43,263 nt of DNA from a virus. The notes below the pieces were generated by a model, which had not been told where the DNA came from, did no database searches, and saw only the letters and a program-made list of their open reading frames with translations. Where the stretch lies: the IMG/VR virus record IMGVR_UViG_3300009431_000882; one strand, written 5' to 3'. A program made the translations under genes and the position numbers. This document shows, in pieces, positions 8,218-34,826 of the stretch (within the stretch, counting starts at the first letter, position 1; the number at the start of each line of letters is the position of its first letter).

Positions 8218-9575
8218 GATTTCGACAGTACTTAGAACAAGCAGAAGATGCCAAAACGATGCGGGCTCATATCCCCCTCGACCCGGAAGTTTACGTCCTA
8301 AAGAACTTGTTTGACAAGCACGGTCACGATCTGCGAGTAGTCGGCGGGGCAGTACGAGACTTCTTAACACACGTCTACCGAGGCGGTAATGGGTCGAAAT
8401 ATAAGCCAAAGGACATCGATCTAGTGACACCCGCTCCACCAGACGAAATTAAGGCGGTCATCACAAGCCAGGATGCTGAGGAGAAAGGCATCCACGATCT
8501 TCCAATTGGAGCAGCTTTCGGTGTCATAGCAGCGGTCTTTCCTAGACGCACGAATGATCCAAAAGAAAAACCACCTATGTATGAAATTGCCACTTATCGA
8601 AAAGACATAGGCGCTGGACGACGCCCTGATGCAGTAGAATACGTCTCAGATGCAACACATGATGCGAAACGACGTGATCTAGCGTACAATGCCTTATACT
8701 ATGACGTTCCTGATAAGCCCGGCGAGGAAGGGATTCTTTACGATTACAGCGGTGGCCAAGGATTCGAGGACTGTAAAACCGGTTTTCCTCATTTTGTTGG
8801 CGAGCCGCTTGAGCGTTGTAGAGAAGACAACCTTCGTGTGATGCGATACATTCGTTTTCTCTCCAGAGGACACGTGGGCGGACCAGAGGTCGTCGAGAGA
8901 GAAGACGCCAAAGCAGCGGAAGCCCTGCGACAATTTGCCAGTATGCCAGGCGTTTCGTCCGAAAGAATCATAGCCGAGTTTCTATCTGGCCTGAAATCAG
9001 CACTTGATCCGGTCAACTACCTACGTACGCTTCATCATTTTGGCATAATGGACCGCATGTTCTCCAATCTTCAAGTTAACACCAAGTTTCAGAACCTCAG
9101 AACGCTTGGTTCAGGAGACATGGTAAGGAATCCCCGGATCGTTTTGGCCTACATCCTAAAAGACAATCCACCTGAGACCCTAGGCCAGGCGCTACAGACG
9201 CTCAAATTCAACAGTCCCCAAGAAGCTGGTAGATTGGTAGAAGGCATTGTGTTTCTAGTAAGTTTGCAAAATCTCAGCACCGACACGGCTACCGGTCTTT
9301 CAAAGACTAGAGACAAACTACGGCCAGATGTAAGGATGCCTGATCCTAAAGCTAGAGAGAGCTTTATCTCTCAACACAACGACGAAATGAGAGCCTGGGC
9401 CGCTCTACTTAAACTAGATCAGAATACAATGGCTGACTTCACTCGCTATGAACGAACTATCAGAGGAACCGACCCTCGATTCGCCGGTTTGCAAGGCAAA
9501 GAGTTAGGAAAAGCAATCAAAGACGCTGAGCAAGAAGCCTTTGTTGCGTTGTCGAAAAAGAAGAAAAAGAGGTAG
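8214..9575 (+). CDS. CCA-adding tRNA nucleotidyltransferase / poly(A) polymerase family protein (class II head domain)
   Basis: Motifs LRVVGGAVRDFL...DIDLVT, YEIATYRKD, RRDLAYNALYYD and EDNLRVMRYIRFLSRG match the class-II nucleotidyltransferase head and neck. The start is reassigned to the ATG at 8214, which overlaps the upstream stop. The track ORF begins at 8118. Confidence 0.75.
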   Translation: MRFRQYLEQAEDAKTMRAHIPLDPEVYVLKNLFDKHGHDLRVVGGAVRDFLTHVYRGGNGSKYKPKDIDLVTPAPPDEIKAVITSQDAEEKGIHDLPIGAAFGVIAAVFPRRTNDPKEKPPMYEIATYRKDIGAGRRPDAVEYVSDATHDAKRRDLAYNALYYDVPDKPGEEGILYDYSGGQGFEDCKTGFPHFVGEPLERCREDNLRVMRYIRFLSRGHVGGPEVVEREDAKAAEALRQFASMPGVSSERIIAEFLSGLKSALDPVNYLRTLHHFGIMDRMFSNLQVNTKFQNLRTLGSGDMVRNPRIVLAYILKDNPPETLGQALQTLKFNSPQEAGRLVEGIVFLVSLQNLSTDTATGLSKTRDKLRPDVRMPDPKARESFISQHNDEMRAWAALLKLDQNTMADFTRYERTIRGTDPRFAGLQGKELGKAIKDAEQEAFVALSKKKKKR

Positions 9576-10296: not shown

Positions 10297-10652
10297 TCTT
10301 CTTCTTCCAAGCAGTGGCCTTTGATCGATGAGTACATCACCATACCACGCTTGCGGCCTTCGCTAGAGAACTTATAGTCGCCGTAGTTGGGAGCAAAATG
10401 AATCGCCCCGTCGATAAAGACCCTATGCCCCACTTCAACCCCAACTCCTTCCGGCACTTGTGGGCCAACATCGAGAACATAGGCTTCGTGAATGGCTAAA
10501 TTACTATCCCCAGTGAGCTTCAACTTAGTATTAAGAACTTCCTGTGCTGACAGCACTTCCACAAAGATATAACTGCCGTAGGCTTTGACATCGACGATTT
10601 TACGCAGTGGCGACCGATCCTCTACCACTTCTTCTCTTAACAACACAGTCAT
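10293..10652 (-). CDS. GroES/Hsp10-like small protein (co-chaperonin fold), 119 aa
   Basis: VLDVGPQVPEGVGVEVGHRVFIDG resembles the GroES core VVAVGPG...VKVGDKVLF. Low-stringency similarity only. Confidence 0.4.
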   Translation of the reverse strand: MTVLLREEVVEDRSPLRKIVDVKAYGSYIFVEVLSAQEVLNTKLKLTGDSNLAIHEAYVLDVGPQVPEGVGVEVGHRVFIDGAIHFAPNYGDYKFSSEGRKRGMVMYSSIKGHCLEEED

Positions 10653-10703
10653 TACTTTCTCCTTCAGATAAGGTTGGCTTATCTAAAGAAGAGTAATGGC
10701 TGG

Positions 10704-11021
10704 TTATCCTTTGCCTAACAATCGCCAAATAGTAGCCCTATCAAGAGAAATCGCCCGGTGGATTTCCACCGGGCGATTTCGTTGGATTTCGTTGATTGCT
10801 TGAAGGATGTCATCAAGGTCGTGTCCGTGGTTGCCTCCGCTGTTCAGCCAAATAAAGTATGCTCGTGTTTGGATATCGTCCCATGATTCACTCAGAGCAA
10901 CTGGGCAGAAACCAAAGCGGTCAGCAAATCTCAGCGTCCTAGAGAGAGCGTACCAGCGGGCTTTGATGTTATCCCCGTGGCGGCGCTTTCGAGTACCGTC
11001 AGGGGCTAAGTTGGGTGTCAT
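10704..11021 (-). CDS. hypothetical protein, 105 aa
   Basis: ORF with normal composition. Same orientation as the GroES-like gene. Confidence 0.4.
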   Translation of the reverse strand: MTPNLAPDGTRKRRHGDNIKARWYALSRTLRFADRFGFCPVALSESWDDIQTRAYFIWLNSGGNHGHDLDDILQAINEIQRNRPVEIHRAISLDRATIWRLLGKG

Positions 11022-16411: not shown

Positions 16412-16971
16412 AGAGGAACACCGTAATAACCTTGGTTGTTTTGGCAGCAGTTACTGCCGCCGTTGTCTGTGCACTAACATTCAGTTGTCTCTGGTGGCTC
16501 TACAACCCCGGCCGTTCCCTCGGCGATCCCGTGTACAAGGAGGTGACGGGCACGATTGAAGATGTTTTCTGCTGCCAGGATCAAGAGACAGTGAAGTTCC
16601 GCTTCGATGATGGTAGGGTCATCACTTTGAAGGCTCCCGACTTCATTCAGTACCTGGAAGAAACCAATCAGCGTGCCTTCTGGTACAACGAACAAGGCAA
16701 GTTGATCGAACTAACAATACGCCAAGACGACACCGGCGACTACCTCGACTCGTTTATACTCAAGCCGCCACCAATTGATATAACAAAGTTCACACGAGAG
16801 GAACTGGCACGAGCAAAACGAGATCAAGAGAACGCCCTTGGCCTGGCGGCCGAGGCTGCCAGGAAAGAGTGCTCCGAGCAAGGAATCGACCCCGATTCCC
16901 CCGAGGGCGAGCAGTTTATTCTGATCCGGGTGGACGAGGCAATCCAGGCAAAGCCGTACCCTCCCCGGTAG
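16408..16971 (+). CDS. hypothetical membrane-anchored protein, 187 aa
   Basis: SD GGAGCAAGAG. N-terminal TM helix. Confidence 0.5.
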   Translation: MKRNTVITLVVLAAVTAAVVCALTFSCLWWLYNPGRSLGDPVYKEVTGTIEDVFCCQDQETVKFRFDDGRVITLKAPDFIQYLEETNQRAFWYNEQGKLIELTIRQDDTGDYLDSFILKPPPIDITKFTREELARAKRDQENALGLAAEAARKECSEQGIDPDSPEGEQFILIRVDEAIQAKPYPPR

Positions 16972-16997
16972 GCCCTGAAAAATTGCTCCAGATAGGC

Positions 16998-17025
16998 TTG
17001 ACACGGACTCCGGGATCGCTAGAAT
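16998..17025 (+). promoter_or_regulatory. sigma70 promoter P1: TTGACA-N16-TAGAAT
   Basis: Consensus -35 at 16998..17003. -10 TAGAAT at 17020..17025. Confidence 0.55.
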
Positions 17026-17067
17026 CGGTCGAGTCGCCTGCGGGTGACGGATTTTTTGGAAACAGGC

Positions 17068-17095
17068 TTGACAACAGGCCAACAACCCTTAAAAT
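17068..17095 (+). promoter_or_regulatory. sigma70 promoter P2: TTGACA-N16-TAAAAT
   Basis: -35 at 17068..17073. -10 at 17090..17095. Confidence 0.5.
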
Positions 17096-17289
17096 CGGAG
17101 GTGGATTGACAAAGGTTCTTGCCGCCCGCCCCGCACCCAGTGACGGGGCGGGCGGCGGCGGAGTCAATCAGACCTGGGTTTTCTAGTCATCCGGTCAATA
17201 AGGAGTCTTTCAGCTTCATGGATGCGAAGGCAACAGCCACCTAACTAAACCTTTAATCACGGTGGGCTGAAAACAAACGCTTTCAGGGC

Positions 17290-17318
17290 TTGACTCCAAC
17301 TAGACAGATCGCTAGAAT
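17290..17318 (+). promoter_or_regulatory. sigma70 promoter P3: TTGACT-N17-TAGAAT
   Basis: -35 at 17290..17295. -10 at 17313..17318. The flank GATCGCTAGAATC is shared with P1. Confidence 0.55.
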
Positions 17319-17405
17319 CCCTGGTGTCAATGAGCGGAGAACAAACGCTCACGACGCTAGTAGGTTGTTAAGAAGACGGACGGGAAGAAAGTTGTTCGTG
17401 ACCTC

Positions 17406-17434
17406 TTGACAACCTAACAACACAACGCTAAGAT
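17406..17434 (+). promoter_or_regulatory. sigma70-like promoter P4: TTGACA-N17-TAAGAT
   Basis: -35 at 17406..17411. -10 at 17429..17434. Confidence 0.4.
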
Positions 17435-18541
17435 TAACGAACACATGTGGCCCCTGGGAGTTGGGACCGTTGGAGCGCAAGCAACGACCTAACCACTCCC
17501 TGGGCCGCTTTTGATCTTTGACAATTTGGTGAAGCGAGTCCCAACATCATAATGCTCTTCAGCATATGATGGCCTGGCAAACTGAGATTTGTGGGACACT
17601 CGATTGGAAAGAAAGACTGGGCTGCTCCAGTGGGTCAGTTTTTTCAACCTCATCCAGGGTGATGAGCCCAAAGGTGAGTAACCAGCGAGGACAAAACCCT
17701 AATCCGCAAGAACGGGGTGGGAGAACTGTCAAGGTTCTATGTTGAAGGATATAAGCGGTCCTTCCGTAAGGATTGATTGTCGAAACCAGCAACGGAACTC
17801 ACAAACAGGCATCGATCAGTTAAGGGCGGCAGAAGGCTATAAAGTTGCCATCATAAGAAGGACCAGAAATGGCCTGGAACGATGTTGGTTGTGGAAAAGC
17901 CTCCAAAAGAACTCGGACACAAGCAGTATTGCTAAGCAGCGACAAAGAGAGTCTCCAAAGCCAATCCGGCTAAACTTGTTCTGGTAACAGAAAAATCGGT
18001 GTCGGAACGGTGCCGATTTTCTCCTAAGTTGCTCTGCGGGAAACAGCGAGGACACGTCGGCCCTAACAGACGGACAGGAAAACGTGGAAACCGCATCTAT
18101 ACGTCGAGCGGCCAACACGCCCTCCCAGAACGATGGGATGATACTGTAGCAAGTATCGAAAGTCTGTGAGCCTAGTGGACATCAACCACTTAGAAACGAG
18201 GTAGAAACCTAACTACCAAAAAACAATAGGAGGTTGTGGGAACTCATAGTTTGGGTACGAGCGGATGGCAGCAACTTCGGGACAAAGGCCCGACCCCTTG
18301 GTGACAGAGGGAATCGGCTTGACTACCGGAGAAGTGAAAATCCAATCACAACCAAAACACGAGCCACAGCTATGCCACTGGCAGGTACCACGGTCGTACG
18401 CAGCGGCCGTTATACGGTGGCCTCAAAAGGGCCAGCAGACAGACCTGGCAGTAATGACGTATTGGACAAAGCGCATGGGACTCACGATACTTGATTTGTA
18501 GGTGGATCAAACTGTCTGTGGATCGAGTAACTGTCTGCGAG

Positions 18542-18579
18542 AAAGCCCCGGCACTTCGGTGTTCGGGGCTTTCTTTTTG
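18542..18579 (+). terminator. intrinsic terminator (AAAGCCCCG-gcacttcggtgtt-CGGGGCTTT, then CTTTTTG)
   Basis: GC stem followed by a T-tract, on the plus strand only. Confidence 0.65.
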
Positions 18580-18709
18580 CGCCGACCGCAATGCTAGCAC
18601 AGTCATAAGTGCTTGTGGCAGCCGTTCTTAACTCGCCTTGACCGAATTTTCATTTTCTGCGATGATGCTGCCAATAAGCACCTAACAACCACGGGAGGGA
18701 GACCAGGAA

Positions 18710-18952
18710 ATGACTAGCGACGATATCCGGTCACGATTGGTCCAGGTCTGCACAGACAATCTGGGCATTGATGAAGATTAACTGACCACCACCGGCGCAA
18801 CATTCAAGTCTCTGGGGGCCGACTCCCTAGACCTGGTGGAAGTTTTCATGGAGACGGAAGAAGAGTTCGACATCAACATCCCCGATGATGATGCCGAAAA
18901 AATCACGTCCTTCGACCAACTCCTCGCATACGTCCAGGAAAAGTCCGAATAG
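18710..18952 (+). pseudogene. acpP: acyl carrier protein (ACP) gene interrupted by an in-frame TAA at codon 24
   Basis: RBS GGGAGGGA 9 nt upstream. The translation [79 protein letters not shown] carries the DSL phosphopantetheine site and an overall ACP fold pattern. The single TAA at 18779..18781 sits where E, K or Q is expected. Confidence 0.6.
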
Positions 18953-18966
18953 GAGCAGAGAACCAA

Positions 18967-19386
18967 ATGGCTGCGGATTTTGCAGAACGATCACAAACAG
19001 TGTTGCAAGTGGCCCAGCGGTTATTCGACACCGATCCAAAACCGGATTGGGTCACGTTCTTCCGTGAAATCATGGGAGTCGAAGGGGCCATCGTCAAAGA
19101 ATTTCCTGGTGCAAATGAAGCACGGCAATTCGAGCAGACTGACGCATACAGTCAGATTCAGGGCATGGTGGGCCAACTTCGCACCGACGAGTTGGAACAA
19201 ACCGCTGGCGAAAAAACCCAAACGATTACACCACGGGTACCCGTTAGCCTCCATGTGGCTCTCAAGGCGGAGGTAAAGCAATTGAAGGATAATGGGCGTC
19301 CGGGTATGAGCCTCAACAGGCTCGTGATTACCAAATGCCTCGCTCCGACGAGGCCCGAGTTATTGCCGCCCAAAGCTAACAGCTAG
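18967..19386 (+). CDS. hypothetical protein, 139 aa
   Basis: SD AGGAGCA. ORF with normal composition. A stem-loop follows the stop at 19383..19417. Confidence 0.5.
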   Translation: MAADFAERSQTVLQVAQRLFDTDPKPDWVTFFREIMGVEGAIVKEFPGANEARQFEQTDAYSQIQGMVGQLRTDELEQTAGEKTQTITPRVPVSLHVALKAEVKQLKDNGRPGMSLNRLVITKCLAPTRPELLPPKANS

Positions 19387-22686: not shown

Positions 22687-23634
22687 TTATGGGCAATCAG
22701 TGCAGTCGGGCTCAATCAAATCAGCATCAGTCAAGGTGTAGGGTTCTTCCGTAATCTGTATCGGGTTAGACCCTGCACCACCCGTTCGCACGTAACAAAT
22801 CCTACGGCCGACTTCTCCGGCACTTGCGCCTGCGTGGTATTCGATGATCTGCGCAATATCCCCGTTCACATCCAGGCAGATGTTCTGGAATGTGAATAGA
22901 CCAGACCGCCCTCTCAAGAGTTGCCAGTCACCTTGAATGGTGGCAGAATCGAATCCTTTCGTGTTACCTCGTTCATCTACGGCATCATCGATGATATTAG
23001 CATGAACGTTACTGCCGGTGGGATTACTCGTGTAGTCATAAGGATCGAGGCGGACTAGGTGATTTGTGACAGTCAAGTGGCCGCTATCATCCTTGTACTG
23101 GTCAATTGCCGCTGCGGAAGCAAACTGGTGCAATACCTGGTGCCTATCAAAGTACGTGGGCAGTTCAGCTACCCCAGCACGCCTGTTAAACTGCAAAGAG
23201 GGTTCGGCATGGGTTAAATCCACATAGTAGCGGAATTCCGTGCCTGGTTTATTTGCTCGAATTTGCGTGCGATGGGTCTGTGGGTTCTGGCTTGCCGTAA
23301 ACCAAGCGGTGAAGTTCACATCAGCGTTCAGCGACGAAACAACCTCTGCATGAGTGACCGCATTGGCGGCGGCTGCCTGAGTGGTGACATCAACCTCTAA
23401 CAACGCCCAGCGTTCAAAAGGTACGTGCAAGGTATAGTAAATTCTCAGAGTGTCGCTGGCGTTGCCATCTACGTCAGCGCCTGATAAGTCAAACGGTCCA
23501 TTTTCCCACGAGATAATCAATTCATCGCCACGACCTGCATTACGAGGACAGAACAACGAAAGACTTTGGTGACGATCTGCTAACACCCAATTTCCCTGAA
23601 AGTCTTCACAGAACGGATTGAGGTAATAGGCCAT
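22687..23634 (-). CDS. hypothetical protein, 315 aa
   Basis: Long ORF with normal composition. Convergent with the lipoprotein gene. Confidence 0.5.
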   Translation of the reverse strand: MAYYLNPFCEDFQGNWVLADRHQSLSLFCPRNAGRGDELIISWENGPFDLSGADVDGNASDTLRIYYTLHVPFERWALLEVDVTTQAAAANAVTHAEVVSSLNADVNFTAWFTASQNPQTHRTQIRANKPGTEFRYYVDLTHAEPSLQFNRRAGVAELPTYFDRHQVLHQFASAAAIDQYKDDSGHLTVTNHLVRLDPYDYTSNPTGSNVHANIIDDAVDERGNTKGFDSATIQGDWQLLRGRSGLFTFQNICLDVNGDIAQIIEYHAGASAGEVGRRICYVRTGGAGSNPIQITEEPYTLTDADLIEPDCTDCP

Positions 23635-29095: not shown

Positions 29096-30282
29096 TAATC
29101 TACTCGCTCTTCCTAATCCCTTTCTTCGTAGCTGCTGTCTTGTGGCTGCTGTGGGGCGAGCGCACAGCCTGGTGGGAAATGCTCATCATATTGATCGTGA
29201 GCACGCTCCTCATCATCGGGACCAAGTTTGGCGTTGAATACACCCAGGTATCCGACATCGAATACTGGACGAACAAAGTAACCAAAGCCGAGTACCACGA
29301 AGGATGGACCGAAGAGTGGTACACCAACGAAGACATCAAAGACAGTAAAGGAAGGGTCACGGGCACCAGGCGAGTGCGCCATACCAAACGCCACCCGCCT
29401 GAATACTATCTCATTCTCCATCCCAGCGGCAAAACGTCCGTCAGCCGCTCCGTCTACCGGAAAATGGCCAGCAAGTTCGGGAATGAGAAAGAGAAAGACT
29501 TGTACCACTCCGGTCAGTGCTCGTGGGGCGACGGTGATATGTACTATTCGGTCTTTCGTGGTGCCCGAGATAAAATGACCGTTGCCACCACCGAACACCG
29601 ATACGAAAACCGGGTACGAGTTGCCAAGACTGTCTTCGATTTTCCAAAGGTCACGGACAAGCAGAAGAAAGACTACCGGCTTTTCGATTATCCCAAAATC
29701 AACGACCCCACTACCATCCCTAGCATCTTAGGCAATGGTGGACCAACCCTGGTTGCCGCCAACAAAGAATTGTGCCGCCTCAATGCCGAACTTGGTCCAC
29801 GTGGTAATCACCGACAGGTGCGCCTGTGGGTACTCATCTGGCAGAACCAGTCTCTCGACGCCGGTATGCTTCAAGAAGGGTATTGGTTTGGCGGCAACAA
29901 GAATGAATTGGTGGCCTGCATTGGCACCGACAGTGAATACAACGTGAAGTGGGCTTATGTCTTCTCCTGGTCGGAAGAGGAAAACCTGAAGATCGATATC
30001 CGCAGCTTCATACGCAAACAGAAGAAACTCGACCTAGTGCCCATTGTCGATATGATGGGAGAAGAAGTCGAGAAACAATGGATTAGAAAACAGTTCAAAG
30101 ACTTCAGCTATCTCACCGTCGAGCCGCCGTTGTGGGCCTTCTTCACATCTGGGGGTGTGATCTTACTTATCAACATCGGTATCAGCCTGTGGGTCGTTCT
30201 TAACAGCTACGATGCCGACGGCCAACGACACCGCTTCCGTTACCAGCCACGATGGAGAAGAAGGAGAATACGAAGGTGGTGA
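29092..30282 (+). CDS. hypothetical membrane protein, 396 aa (two N-terminal TM helices, one C-terminal)
   Basis: Long ORF, translationally coupled to the upstream gene. Confidence 0.5.
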   Translation: MIIYSLFLIPFFVAAVLWLLWGERTAWWEMLIILIVSTLLIIGTKFGVEYTQVSDIEYWTNKVTKAEYHEGWTEEWYTNEDIKDSKGRVTGTRRVRHTKRHPPEYYLILHPSGKTSVSRSVYRKMASKFGNEKEKDLYHSGQCSWGDGDMYYSVFRGARDKMTVATTEHRYENRVRVAKTVFDFPKVTDKQKKDYRLFDYPKINDPTTIPSILGNGGPTLVAANKELCRLNAELGPRGNHRQVRLWVLIWQNQSLDAGMLQEGYWFGGNKNELVACIGTDSEYNVKWAYVFSWSEEENLKIDIRSFIRKQKKLDLVPIVDMMGEEVEKQWIRKQFKDFSYLTVEPPLWAFFTSGGVILLINIGISLWVVLNSYDADGQRHRFRYQPRWRRRRIRRW

Positions 30283-30348
30283 AGGAATATTCATCCTGAA
30301 GGAGATCAGTCTTTTCGTCGCATCATTTCCCGAGTGCGGCCCGCTTCA

Positions 30349-30382
30349 CCGCCCGCCTGGCCGTTGGCCAGGCGGGCGGTTT
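30349..30382 (+). terminator. terminator-like hairpin (14-bp perfect stem CCGCCCGCCTGGCC/GGCCAGGCGGGCGG, then TTT)
   Basis: Perfect GC stem 67 nt after the stop of gene 29092..30282. The U-tract is short. Confidence 0.4.
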
Positions 30383-30401
30383 CCGTGCGCCGATTTCAGA
30401 A

Positions 30402-30430
30402 TTACGTATAAAACTGGCGGTTGCTACAAT
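30402..30430 (+). promoter_or_regulatory. promoter TTACGT-N17-TgcTACAAT (extended -10)
   Basis: A near-consensus -10, TACAAT, with a TGc extension sits 9 nt upstream of the ATG at 30440. The mRNA may be leaderless. Confidence 0.4.
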
Positions 30431-30439
30431 GCCTTCATA

Positions 30440-31204
30440 ATGGCTGATACGTATATCATCTTCTTTGACAACAAACGACAAGAGAAGACAGCTTCTACTC
30501 GCAATCAAGCTGTAGCGGGATTGTTCGGTTTTCTGGAGGAGGCCACTCGGGCATGGTTCGTGGGCTTTCCCTCAGCCAATGCCTGGATTGTGTGCAATGA
30601 ACCAGATCAAGCGAAATTTACGAGTGATCTCAAGAACTGCTCCAAGACTCATGCAGAATGGTTATTAGACGTTTATGATAAGGTTGAGCTTTACGCCGAG
30701 AGCATGAACCTGGGTGTCTTTGCCAGCGCTGCGGCGTTCAGTGCTAAAGAACTGGAAAGGACCATGCAACCGGCAGAAACTATGACTCGAATAGCGGCTA
30801 CTGAAAAGGCAGAACAGATCATCGTCCGAATGTTATCACATGATGACGACGCTATTGCTGATGCCTGGCAACCAGGGGAAATCGACCCTATCAAAATACT
30901 CCAGGCCGCCGAGGTACGTATCTTCGCCTTCAATCTACATCAAGTTCTTAACAAAACGCCATTGGGTATGGAAGCGGTTGATCGTATGTGTGGCTTCACA
31001 CCAGGTACGACATTGAAGATGATCCACGCTGTCGACCCGCTCCGCCCAACCAGCAAAATGGTAGACAAGCTGGCTCGGAATTTACGGGTGGAACCTACGA
31101 ACCTATGGATCGATCTTGTGTCGATGTACCTGGAAAAGACTGGCAAGTGGGCCGAATACACGGAGACTGGCGATGGACGTTACACTCACCCTTCCAGATG
31201 CTAA
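30440..31204 (+). CDS. hypothetical protein (about 254 aa from the ATG at 30440)
   Basis: The track ORF starts at 30212 but overlaps gene 29092..30282 in another frame. The internal ATG follows the terminator and the promoter. Confidence 0.45.
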   Translation: MADTYIIFFDNKRQEKTASTRNQAVAGLFGFLEEATRAWFVGFPSANAWIVCNEPDQAKFTSDLKNCSKTHAEWLLDVYDKVELYAESMNLGVFASAAAFSAKELERTMQPAETMTRIAATEKAEQIIVRMLSHDDDAIADAWQPGEIDPIKILQAAEVRIFAFNLHQVLNKTPLGMEAVDRMCGFTPGTTLKMIHAVDPLRPTSKMVDKLARNLRVEPTNLWIDLVSMYLEKTGKWAEYTETGDGRYTHPSRC

Positions 31205-34012: not shown

Positions 34013-34264
34013 TGAGAAATCACCCTGATCGCTGAGGCCGCCATTTGGCTCTCGCACGATCTGCCGCCTATGTGTGGATTTCGGATCGAGCACACGCCTC
34101 GTGCCCCAGCGATCAGGGTTCTTTCATATCCTGATGGATTGCATCCCAATCGTCGGCGCAGGCCCCCCGGCCCACGCACACCTGCTTCGCCATTGGCGAA
34201 GCAGGTGTGCCCATTTGATAACAAGCGACCATCCGTTCCTTTCGCCACGGCCGCTTCGTCCCCT

Positions 34265-34307
34265 GCCCGTTTCCTCGGATTTCCCGAGGAAACGGGCTTT
34301 TCTTTTT
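34265..34307 (+). terminator. strong intrinsic terminator (13-bp perfect stem CCCGTTTCCTCGG/CCGAGGAAACGGG, loop ATTTC, then CTTTTCTTTTTT)
   Basis: Textbook rho-independent terminator on the plus strand. Confidence 0.7.
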
Positions 34308-34556
34308 TCTCTCCTGTCAGGATCAGCCCTTCAGCGGACTATAGGCATGGTAGCCATTCCCGGTGAATCATCCTGCTAGCGTAGAATCGCTAGCGAGCGC
34401 AACTCCAGGAATCGCAAGGCATATCGAAAACGATAGTATTCAAACGCCCACTAGCTAGCATTACGAAACGCCAGTACTGCTAGCTGTGGTATTCCCAGGG
34501 TTCTACGCACATTTGTGTTTCACCGGGAATTGCTGTAGGCATGGGAGGGTGTCTAT

Positions 34557-34763
34557 ATGCATCATCGCTGCTACGCTGGGGCGACGTTTACCATCAGCTT
34601 CCTCGGCCGTATCCTACACGCTGACGGCCCAGCCTACTACGACGAGGAACACAACGAACTTGTGATTCCCCTCGCCAATGCGGCTGTCCACCTGGACCAG
34701 AGCTTTACAGGACGAATCGCAGATGGACGAGAGTACGGCACAGATTACTTGGTGGAATTATGA
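34557..34763 (+). CDS. hypothetical small protein, 68 aa
   Basis: GGGAGGG 8 nt upstream of the ATG. Normal composition. Confidence 0.35.
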   Translation: MHHRCYAGATFTISFLGRILHADGPAYYDEEHNELVIPLANAAVHLDQSFTGRIADGREYGTDYLVEL

Positions 34764-34826
34764 GACTCCTTCTTCAGTTTACCCTCCCTGCATGTCGATA
34801 TCTTCAAAAACAGCGGAGATATCCCC

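Follow-up and report, generated by a model that had tools for sequence, protein, structure and literature searches.

What is encoded in a viral stretch of 1.7 kb that holds no recognizable gene? The question is raised by positions 16972-18709 of IMG/VR record IMGVR_UViG_3300009431_000882, a complete metagenome contig of 43,263 nucleotides (nt) that is referred to below as the window. To judge by its host-type promoters, hairpin-boxA leader and intrinsic terminator (Table 1), the region is probably a dedicated phage gene for a long untranslated RNA. Such an RNA would measure ∼1.07 kb if counted from boxA to terminator, or 1.14-1.55 kb with its leaders. The preliminary description of the locus had proposed an independent gene for a novel large noncoding RNA (ncRNA) that runs from tandem promoters to a terminator. 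This proposal is supported by the promoters and terminator that belong to the unit itself, by the lack of coding signal, by homologues whose substitutions follow a noncoding pattern, and by the lack of a matching Rfam family. Note that sequence anatomy and its conservation are reported as observed, and that statements on promoter activity, Nus recruitment and RNA abundance draw on what is known of anti-termination in rRNA operons (rrn).

No open reading frame (ORF) of at least 94 amino acids (aa) lies wholly within 16972-18709 on either strand. The longest ORF inside has 93 aa (minus strand), ORFs of 59-93 aa tile the region, and two ORFs of 105 and 124 aa overlap its 5' edge only. Per 50 codons, codon-usage log-odds trained on genes of the same contig reached no more than ∼7 bits within 16972-18700, whichever of the six frames was read, compared with 10-22 for neighbouring genes. 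Six-frame translations of the region matched no Pfam family at E ≤ 1, and tblastn searches of 50,697 phage records with the three plus-strand frames gave no matches. None of the small ORFs in the region has a convincing ribosome-binding site and start codon. All three stop codons are present in all frames of the region, each also terminates genes elsewhere in the window, and reading TAA, TAG or TGA as sense did not open a region-spanning frame; a protein gene in an alternative genetic code was ruled out on these grounds. The initial account of the region as ORF-free therefore stands, and the frameshifted gene that it had named as an alternative was not found by codon usage, Pfam, stop reassignment or tblastn.

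Two true homologues of the RNA unit were present among the 56 loci obtained by a boxA-anchored scan of IMG/VR. One (L140) is a locus in the 527-kb huge phage IMGVR_UViG_3300005613_000001 and the other (L165) is a 21.9-kb contig. In both, tRNAs are lacking and homology extends past boxA. In L140, three tandem promoters (11/12 each) and boxA precede ∼1.03 kb that lacks convincing ORFs, and a 14-bp terminator follows. L165 has boxA, an ORF-poor body and a terminator 1.03 kb downstream of boxA; its contig begins 154 nt before boxA, with the promoters out of view. The three-way alignment covers the full unit, including further conserved blocks at 17691-17708 and 18167-18245, and the window has an ∼80-nt insertion at 17600-17680 relative to both homologues. 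The terminators of L140 and L165 are at the position equivalent to 18542-18579, which in the window is terminator-like on the plus strand only, and the strong intrinsic terminator first proposed for this site is upheld. All three bodies are C-poor with 56-58% purine, and the G+C content of the RNA gene is 6-7 points above that of its own locus in both AT-rich relatives.

L140 and L165 are ∼85% identical. Their 161 mismatches fall 59/55/47 over the codon phases (p = 0.50) and their 19 indels are mostly 1-2 nt, a combination of aperiodic mismatches and short indels that indicates a noncoding mode of evolution. No ORF is common to the window, L140 and L165. Conservation in related genomes, suggested at the outset as a test, was found at these two homologous huge-phage loci. 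An nhmmer profile of the three-way alignment detected no further full-length member in 1.3 Mb of loci, and two pattern scans derived from the body matched L140 and L165 only. Blastn searches of INPHARED phages and PLSDB plasmids with the region, and of phages with the L140 RNA, returned nothing.

Host sigma70 RNA polymerase would start at four tandem near-consensus promoters (P1-P4). Five sites in the window have at least 10/12 sigma70 matches when both strands are counted; four of these are P1-P4, all on the plus strand. The pattern TTGAC-N16-18-TANAAT occurs three times in the window, always within the region, versus 0.31 expected. Because P1-P4 are nearly all such sites in 43 kb, the unit is probably dependent on host RNA polymerase and strongly expressed. 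Both the four sigma70-type promoters of the preliminary description, which are far above chance, and the -10 context that it noted in P1 and P3 (both carry GATCGCTAGAATC) were recovered. When the P1/P2 unit (A) is compared with the P3/P4 unit (B), the promoter core is the sole shared part.

Transcripts from any of P1-P4 would pass the GCAA-capped hairpin at 17447-17508 and then boxA, in the order and spacing of boxB and boxA in rrn leaders. The hairpin is in the boxB position, and L140 and L165 have at the same place a hairpin with a conserved G(C/U)GCAAGC loop stretch. Directly 3' of it, positions 17509-17530 of the window read TTTTGATCTTTGACAATTTGGT. The E. coli rrnB leader has the order P1, P2, boxB hairpin (...GCGAAGCGGC), AC and TGCTCTTTAACAATTTATC. 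At the hairpin-boxA junction, ...GCCGC-TTT-TGATCTTTGACAATTTGGT in the window compares with ...GCGGC-AC-TGCTCTTTAACAATTTATC in rrnB; order and spacing are alike, ∼15/19 bases are identical (TG-N-TCTTT-R-ACAATTT), and the TG...ACAATTT flanks of the window boxA match those of rrnB. BoxA lies downstream of all of P1-P4, directly 3' of the hairpin and at the head of the untranslated RNA, a leader position that is the same in L140, L165 and rrnB. The early remark that tandem promoters recall rRNA genes was borne out further by this anti-termination element 3' of the promoters. In the gamma-proteobacterial boxA consensus, GYTCTTTAANA, the C at position 4 is critical (10.1101/091223). As a candidate rrn-type boxA, GATCTTTGACA matches this consensus at 9/11 positions including the C at position 4.

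A comparison with Planctomycetota came from the P1/P3 promoter motif. Scanning species-representative genomes for TTGAC-N11/12-GATCGCTAGAATC gave 33 matches (L080-L112), about the chance number by our own estimate, of which 8 are in Planctomycetota and 12 in Acidobacteriota. In all ten loci with downstream ORFs listed, the motif is upstream of same-strand ORFs. Some of the genomic matches precede tRNA genes, and one precedes the 23S rRNA of a Phycisphaera metagenome-assembled genome, where GGTTCTTTGACAAGTGG is placed between promoter and 23S rRNA and ATTTGGTTCTTTGACAAGTGG between a hairpin and 23S rRNA. G at boxA position 8 is common to the window and this 23S leader (GTTCTTTGACA). Neither IMG/VR nor the metagenome collection, from which the source contig is evidently missing, contained a match to the promoter motif. 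In the window, exact copies of the 10-mer TCTTTGACAA start at 17515 and 30462, where 0.08 would be expected by our own estimate; 860 kb of other loci gave three more, one of them in the Phycisphaera 23S leader. The second window copy (30462-30471) is ∼20 nt past an ATG within the gene at 30212-31204, would encode F-F-D-N, and is probably a coincidence.

The 20-mer TTTGATCTTTGACAATTTGG, the same as in the window, is also found in tRNA arrays of other viral contigs, including that of the 527-kb phage of L140. At seven viral loci (L115, L119, L120, L144, L148, L150 and L168) TTTG-N-TCTTTGACAATTTGG is on the tRNA strand, inside or heading the tRNA array, and arrays with the boxA-like 20-mer comprise 4 to 32 tRNAs each. 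This suggests that phages may use rrn-type anti-termination for tRNA arrays too. Such arrays are like the RNA unit in their boxA 20-mer and, in the L140 leader, in T-arm-like hairpins; they differ in that no tRNA was predicted anywhere in the window or at the L140 and L165 units. The L140 leader (5560-6250, minus strand) contains a duplicated promoter unit of ∼89 nt and two T-arm-like hairpins, GCAGG-UGAGAAU-CCUGC and GCAGG-UGCAAGC-CCUGC, each followed by an acceptor-like CUGUUC. ARAGORN calls no tRNA there, and the hairpins may be processing signals derived from tRNAs. A leader-trailer processing stem like that of rRNA was sought in the RNA unit and was not significant.

Table 1. Features of the RNA unit and its leader in the window. 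Free energies and z scores are given where calculated.
Feature	Position	Strand	Remarks
Promoter P1	16998..17025	+	TTGACA-16-TAGAAT, 11/12; GGCTTGAC...GATCGCTAGAATC common with P3
Small hairpin and U6	17033..17057	+	-10.4 kcal/mol, z -2.6
Promoter P2	17068..17095	+	TTGACA-16-TAAAAT, 11/12
Very stable GC-rich hairpin 3' of P2, core 17121-17156	17104..17168	+	-48 kcal/mol, z -4.8
Promoter P3, paralogue of P1	17290..17318	+	TTGACT-17-TAGAAT, 10/12
Long hairpin of P3 leader; 3' arm holds the P4 -35 box	17361..17416	+	z -4.4
Promoter P4	17406..17434	+	TTGACA-17-TAAGAT, 10/12
GCAA-capped leader hairpin directly 5' of boxA	17447..17508	+	-35.8 kcal/mol, z -4.1
BoxA-type anti-termination element TTTGATCTTTGACAATTTGGT, core TGATCTTTGACAA 17512-17524	17510..17530	+	21/21 nt identical in L140 and L165
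ncRNA body, purine-rich (58%), C-poor	17531..18541	+	Homologous along its length to L140 and L165
5' conserved block: helix 17588-17594/17682-17689 and ACAAAACCCUAAUCCGCA...GGGGUGGG (17691-17724)	17588..17724	+	Three-way alignment
Most conserved block, two hairpins	18167..18245	+	67-69% identity to L140; compensatory stems, similar loops
Long-range helix 18232-18239/18364-18371 around ∼125-nt subdomain	18232..18371	+	Paired in 3/3 sequences
Hairpin GGCCU-CAAAA-GGGCC	18419..18433	+	GAGGU-UAAAA-GCCUC in L140; pairing kept in three pairs with both bases changed
Intrinsic terminator closing the unit	18542..18579	+	14-bp stem, UUCG loop, U-run; -27.4 kcal/mol, z -5.4

Whole-body folds were each compared with 20 dinucleotide-preserving shuffles. 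Values of z were -3.8 (sense) and -0.9 (antisense) for the window body, -10.3 (sense) and -3.5 (antisense) for L140, and -5.8 (sense) for L165; the sense values of two coding controls from the window were -2.1 and -0.9. On a 300-nt scale the window leader (17101-17700) is exceptional (z -6.9 and -4.0). For an independent helix test, a structure predicted without the window, from L140 and L165, was checked against the window sequence, where 54% of the predicted pairs hold, versus 35-45% in slid controls. Of the 36 predicted helices with 5 bp or more, the window keeps every pair in four, and two of the four have at least two compensatory pairs. The mean in sixteen slid controls was 0.19 fully paired helices, none with compensatory pairs. 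The hairpin 18172-18178/18187-18193 is among the clearest conserved elements, and the hairpin 18200-18204/18213-18217 reads GGUAG...CUACC in the window and CGUGG...CCACG in L140. Projection of the single-sequence minimum-free-energy structure gave a weak signal only. As to the earlier term “structured”, thermodynamic folding is indeed strong in L140 and L165, and covariation backs a handful of helices only.

Several points weigh against a gene for one long structured RNA. The window boxA departs from the gamma-proteobacterial consensus at 2/11 positions, and the Planctomycetota comparison consists of one locus. Three members were found, two of them 85% identical, which makes covariation statistics weak. 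RNAalifold on the three sequences returned 277 pairs, 76 with compensatory change (shuffles, 32 ± 4; slid controls, 12-18), a circular comparison in that the alignment had also supplied the structure. For most helices the independent test does not demonstrate conservation, given the proportion of pairs that hold. On the 300-nt scale the window body folds no better than the coding background. Lastly, internal hairpin-plus-U sites at 17509-17512, 17612-17647 and 17990-18022, the last of which had been pointed out in the initial inspection and is present, could truncate transcripts.

Four rival explanations were weighed against these observations, and the homologue data, taken at the level of sequence, contradict each of them. 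The internal sites could mean that the locus makes several short RNAs (e.g. ∼83 nt from P2 and ∼72 nt from P4) with the 1-kb body as minor read-through: a stable hairpin with a U-run follows P2 and P4 and is found again at 17612-17647 and 17990-18022, and 17101-17700 is the only part that is exceptionally structured at 300 nt. The body, however, is the conserved part (blocks 17691-17708 and 18167-18245, and a full-length profile alignment). Moreover, from boxA to the 3' end of the unit, the RNA strand of L140 and L165 shows no terminator-like site other than the terminator itself, and a boxA after the P4 hairpin makes sense only with continued transcription, so that we consider short products unlikely. 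The close imitation of a stable-RNA operon leader by promoters and boxA would equally fit a decoy that soaks up host RNA polymerase and Nus factors and turns host rRNA synthesis off, the body being mostly spacer. Spacer would not keep the conserved blocks, the compensatory hairpins, a fixed length of ∼1.03-1.07 kb and strong sense folding across lineages with 10-14-point differences in G+C, and we find a decoy quite improbable.

The other two rivals involve the acyl carrier protein (ACP) gene that follows at 18711-18952. Genes that flank the region on either side share one direction, and boxA and several terminator-like hairpins precede the ACP gene, as might be expected if the region were a long regulated 5' leader (attenuator or anti-termination) for ACP and the genes after it. 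This is very improbable given that a strong terminator closes the unit 130 nt before the ACP start, with separate promoter-like motifs past the terminator (GCTAGC at 18593 and TTGACC-17-GATGAT at 18638). The genes after the unit in L140 and L165 lie on the opposite strand and converge on it, which means that there it cannot serve as a leader for downstream genes; the junction of ACP with the adjacent 139-aa gene is kept in a relative, but the RNA unit is elsewhere in L140 and L165. The in-frame TAA of the ACP gene, which could indicate local decay, and the short ORFs that tile the region might instead hint at an mRNA for small proteins or at a protein gene that has decayed or been frameshifted. 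We give this almost no credence in view of the lack of a coding-like frame, of Pfam and tblastn matches, of a convincing ribosome-binding site with start codon and of a frame opened by stop reassignment, together with the aperiodic substitutions and 1-2-nt indels between L140 and L165 and the lack of an ORF common to the three sequences.

On the reading of a dedicated gene for a long untranslated RNA, boxA would recruit NusB/NusE with NusA/NusG and render the polymerase Rho-resistant. BoxA-NusB/NusE complexes are a known device that guards long untranslated RNAs (rRNA, CRISPR arrays) from Rho. Transcription would proceed through ∼1 kb of purine-rich, C-poor, ORF-free body and end at the strong terminator. 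The resulting RNA would be folded and would contain conserved blocks and at least four to five helices that are conserved. Our best guess, held with low confidence, is that it is a structured RNA or ribonucleoprotein component in phage takeover of RNA or translation metabolism. A link to RNA or translation is weakly pointed to by the linkage of the gene to a block with a CCA-adding enzyme (see below) and by the same boxA in phage tRNA arrays. We are evenly divided on whether the RNA is the first member of a new class of large structured RNAs (∼1.05 kb) of huge phages that is expressed from an rRNA-operon-like cassette, borrows host anti-termination and may act in tRNA or translation remodelling. 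A CsrB/RsmZ-type protein sponge was also considered. GGACA occurs eight times on the plus strand of the body (17594-18464) and its complement not at all there; in the whole window GGACA is under-represented (60 observed, 97 ± 9 expected), and L140 and L165 have none, so that the eight copies are probably lineage-specific or due to chance. The sponge was rejected because GGACA is not kept in L140 and L165; the density of GGA is 18-29 per kb.

Comparison with known RNAs gave no family. Rfam 15 at gathering score detected none in the whole window (OLE, GOLLD, ROOL, raiA, HEARO, RNase P, tmRNA, SRP, 6S, group I/II introns and rRNA included). Lowering the threshold to E ≤ 10 for 16900-18750 produced three chance-level matches, SNORD37 and, on the terminator, ctRNA and asX2; small- and large-subunit rRNA had no match in this interval even at E ≤ 10. 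The L140 and L165 RNAs matched no family at E ≤ 1. The statement in the preliminary description that no known RNA family could be recognized, made by eye, thus agrees with the covariance-model searches at both gathering and E-value thresholds. The large bacterial and phage ncRNAs GOLLD, ROOL, OLE and raiA are of a similar size class and share strong predicted folding and, as far as a handful of helices goes, conserved hairpins with covarying stems, but their models match neither the window nor L140 or L165. GOLLD and ROOL are often phage-associated. To our knowledge, none of GOLLD, ROOL, OLE and raiA has an rrn-type boxA leader.

The closest likeness in expression is to the rRNA operon leader (E. 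coli rrnB P1-P2, boxB-boxA-boxC, with NusB/NusE/NusA/NusG/SuhB), in which tandem promoters, a hairpin, a boxA 2-3 nt further on and an untranslated RNA follow one another as in the window. The unit in the window differs in its non-rRNA cargo, in having four promoters instead of two, in lacking a clear boxC and in being phage-borne. In CRISPR arrays led by boxA, the element also heads a long untranslated transcript and shields it from Rho (Stringer et al. 2020, PMC7665894); unlike these arrays, the region has no CRISPR-type repeats or spacers, and its cargo is one conserved RNA. Lambda nut sites are likewise phage-encoded RNA elements with a boxA that modify host RNA polymerase, whereas the window has the rrn order (hairpin, then boxA) and an rrn-like boxA, implicates no N-like protein, and places the element before an ncRNA instead of genes. 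The logic of expression is therefore known from rRNA operons, CRISPR arrays and lambda nut, and the cargo and phage setting appear to be new.

Huge phages are known to carry tRNAs, tmRNAs and translation proteins. We know of no large dedicated ncRNA of huge phages, and a full-text search for papers on boxA in huge or jumbo phages returned none. If the proposed reading is correct, a new large RNA family would be placed beside GOLLD, ROOL and OLE. Phages would then copy the logic of the host rRNA leader, with boxA as an anti-Rho device, for untranslated RNAs, apparently including tRNA arrays. A consensus promoter and a hairpin followed by TTTGNTCTTTGACAATTTGG would provide a sequence handle for more phage RNA genes.

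The window is, by the proteins it encodes, a fragment of a huge phage and not part of a bacterial chromosome. A virion structural protein (phrog_1383, E 3e-36) and a phrog_2087 protein (E 8e-43) are encoded, and the best tblastn relatives of both are in a 595-kb uncultured phage, Lak megaphages, Tenacibaculum jumbo phages and Bacillus phage G. Other genes specify a CCA-adding enzyme, an RNA-repair HAD domain, a SpoU methylase, an M16 peptidase, an aspartate carbamoyltransferase and ACP. The host is probably in the Planctomycetota, as indicated by a Planctomycete signal-peptide motif in the window and by the Planctomycetota relatives of the 139-aa protein. The 527-kb phage of L140 has a 49% homologue of the window protein 22687-23634. 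Synteny with the region was found neither within ±10 kb of that homologue nor in LR756511 (595 kb).

Next to the RNA unit, L140 and L165 carry homologues of window genes 283-1245, 5467-6003, 5961-7277, 7261-7758, 7807-8217 and the CCA-adding enzyme (8118-9575). These shared neighbours indicate that the three phages are related and that the RNA gene is loosely linked to the 283-9575 block. In L140 and L165 the RNA gene is convergent with the homologues of this block and one gene away from that of the CCA-adding enzyme; the distance in the window is 7.4 kb. The synteny anticipated between the upstream operon and the ACP gene is thus not kept. Flanking proteins of the region are absent from IMG/VR and GTDB genomes, and queries with ACP were swamped by bacterial ACPs. 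A 64%-identical relative on a 545-nt contig shows conservation of the junction between ACP and the 139-aa gene only.

The 139-aa protein (18967-19386) has chromosomal relatives in Planctomycetota that are only distant and lack synteny. It resembles chromosomal Planctomycetota proteins annotated as HicB-family antitoxins, and Pfam returned nothing for it. By our own reading its C-terminus is ribbon-helix-helix-like, which makes it a candidate regulator of nearby promoters. The ACP gene has its in-frame TAA (18780-18782) at a conserved position (…GIDED*LTTTG…), with codon usage still strongly coding-like, and the same TAA is present in a contig from another sample (L001). The gene could be a recent pseudogene or contain a read-through site; no stop reassignment is evident in the window.

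Further observations concern the leader and other intergenic parts. The hairpin at 17033-17057 sits at the extreme start of any P1 transcript and is most likely the terminator of the upstream operon, which ends at 16971. The window is matched at 100% or nearly 100% identity by contigs of three further metagenome samples, of which two stop at 17108 and 17132 and the third begins at 17152. These breaks bracket the 16-bp GC-rich hairpin at 17121-17156 and are likely a sequencing or assembly dropout, local variation also being possible. Very strong folding (z -5 to -6.5) was seen in other 300-nt windows starting at 10501, 34201 and 34801 (10501-10800 and 34201-35100), two of the three on both strands, and a long terminator-like hairpin is present at ∼34268-34300 within the 34201 window. 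The palindrome GCTAGC occurs 15 times in the window, 10 of these in the intergenic part (∼14%), typically just upstream of gene blocks (11115, 14267, 18593, 20872, 26657, 34375, 34389, 34454, 34479 and 35747). Sites 11115 and 20872 have GCTAGCATAAAT in common. GCTAGC differs from the sigma70-type P1-P4 and is a candidate for a promoter or operator motif specific to the phage. Finally, an unusual find in a phage is the major-vault-protein shoulder domain (PF11978, E 4e-13) of the 953-aa protein encoded at 2518-5379.

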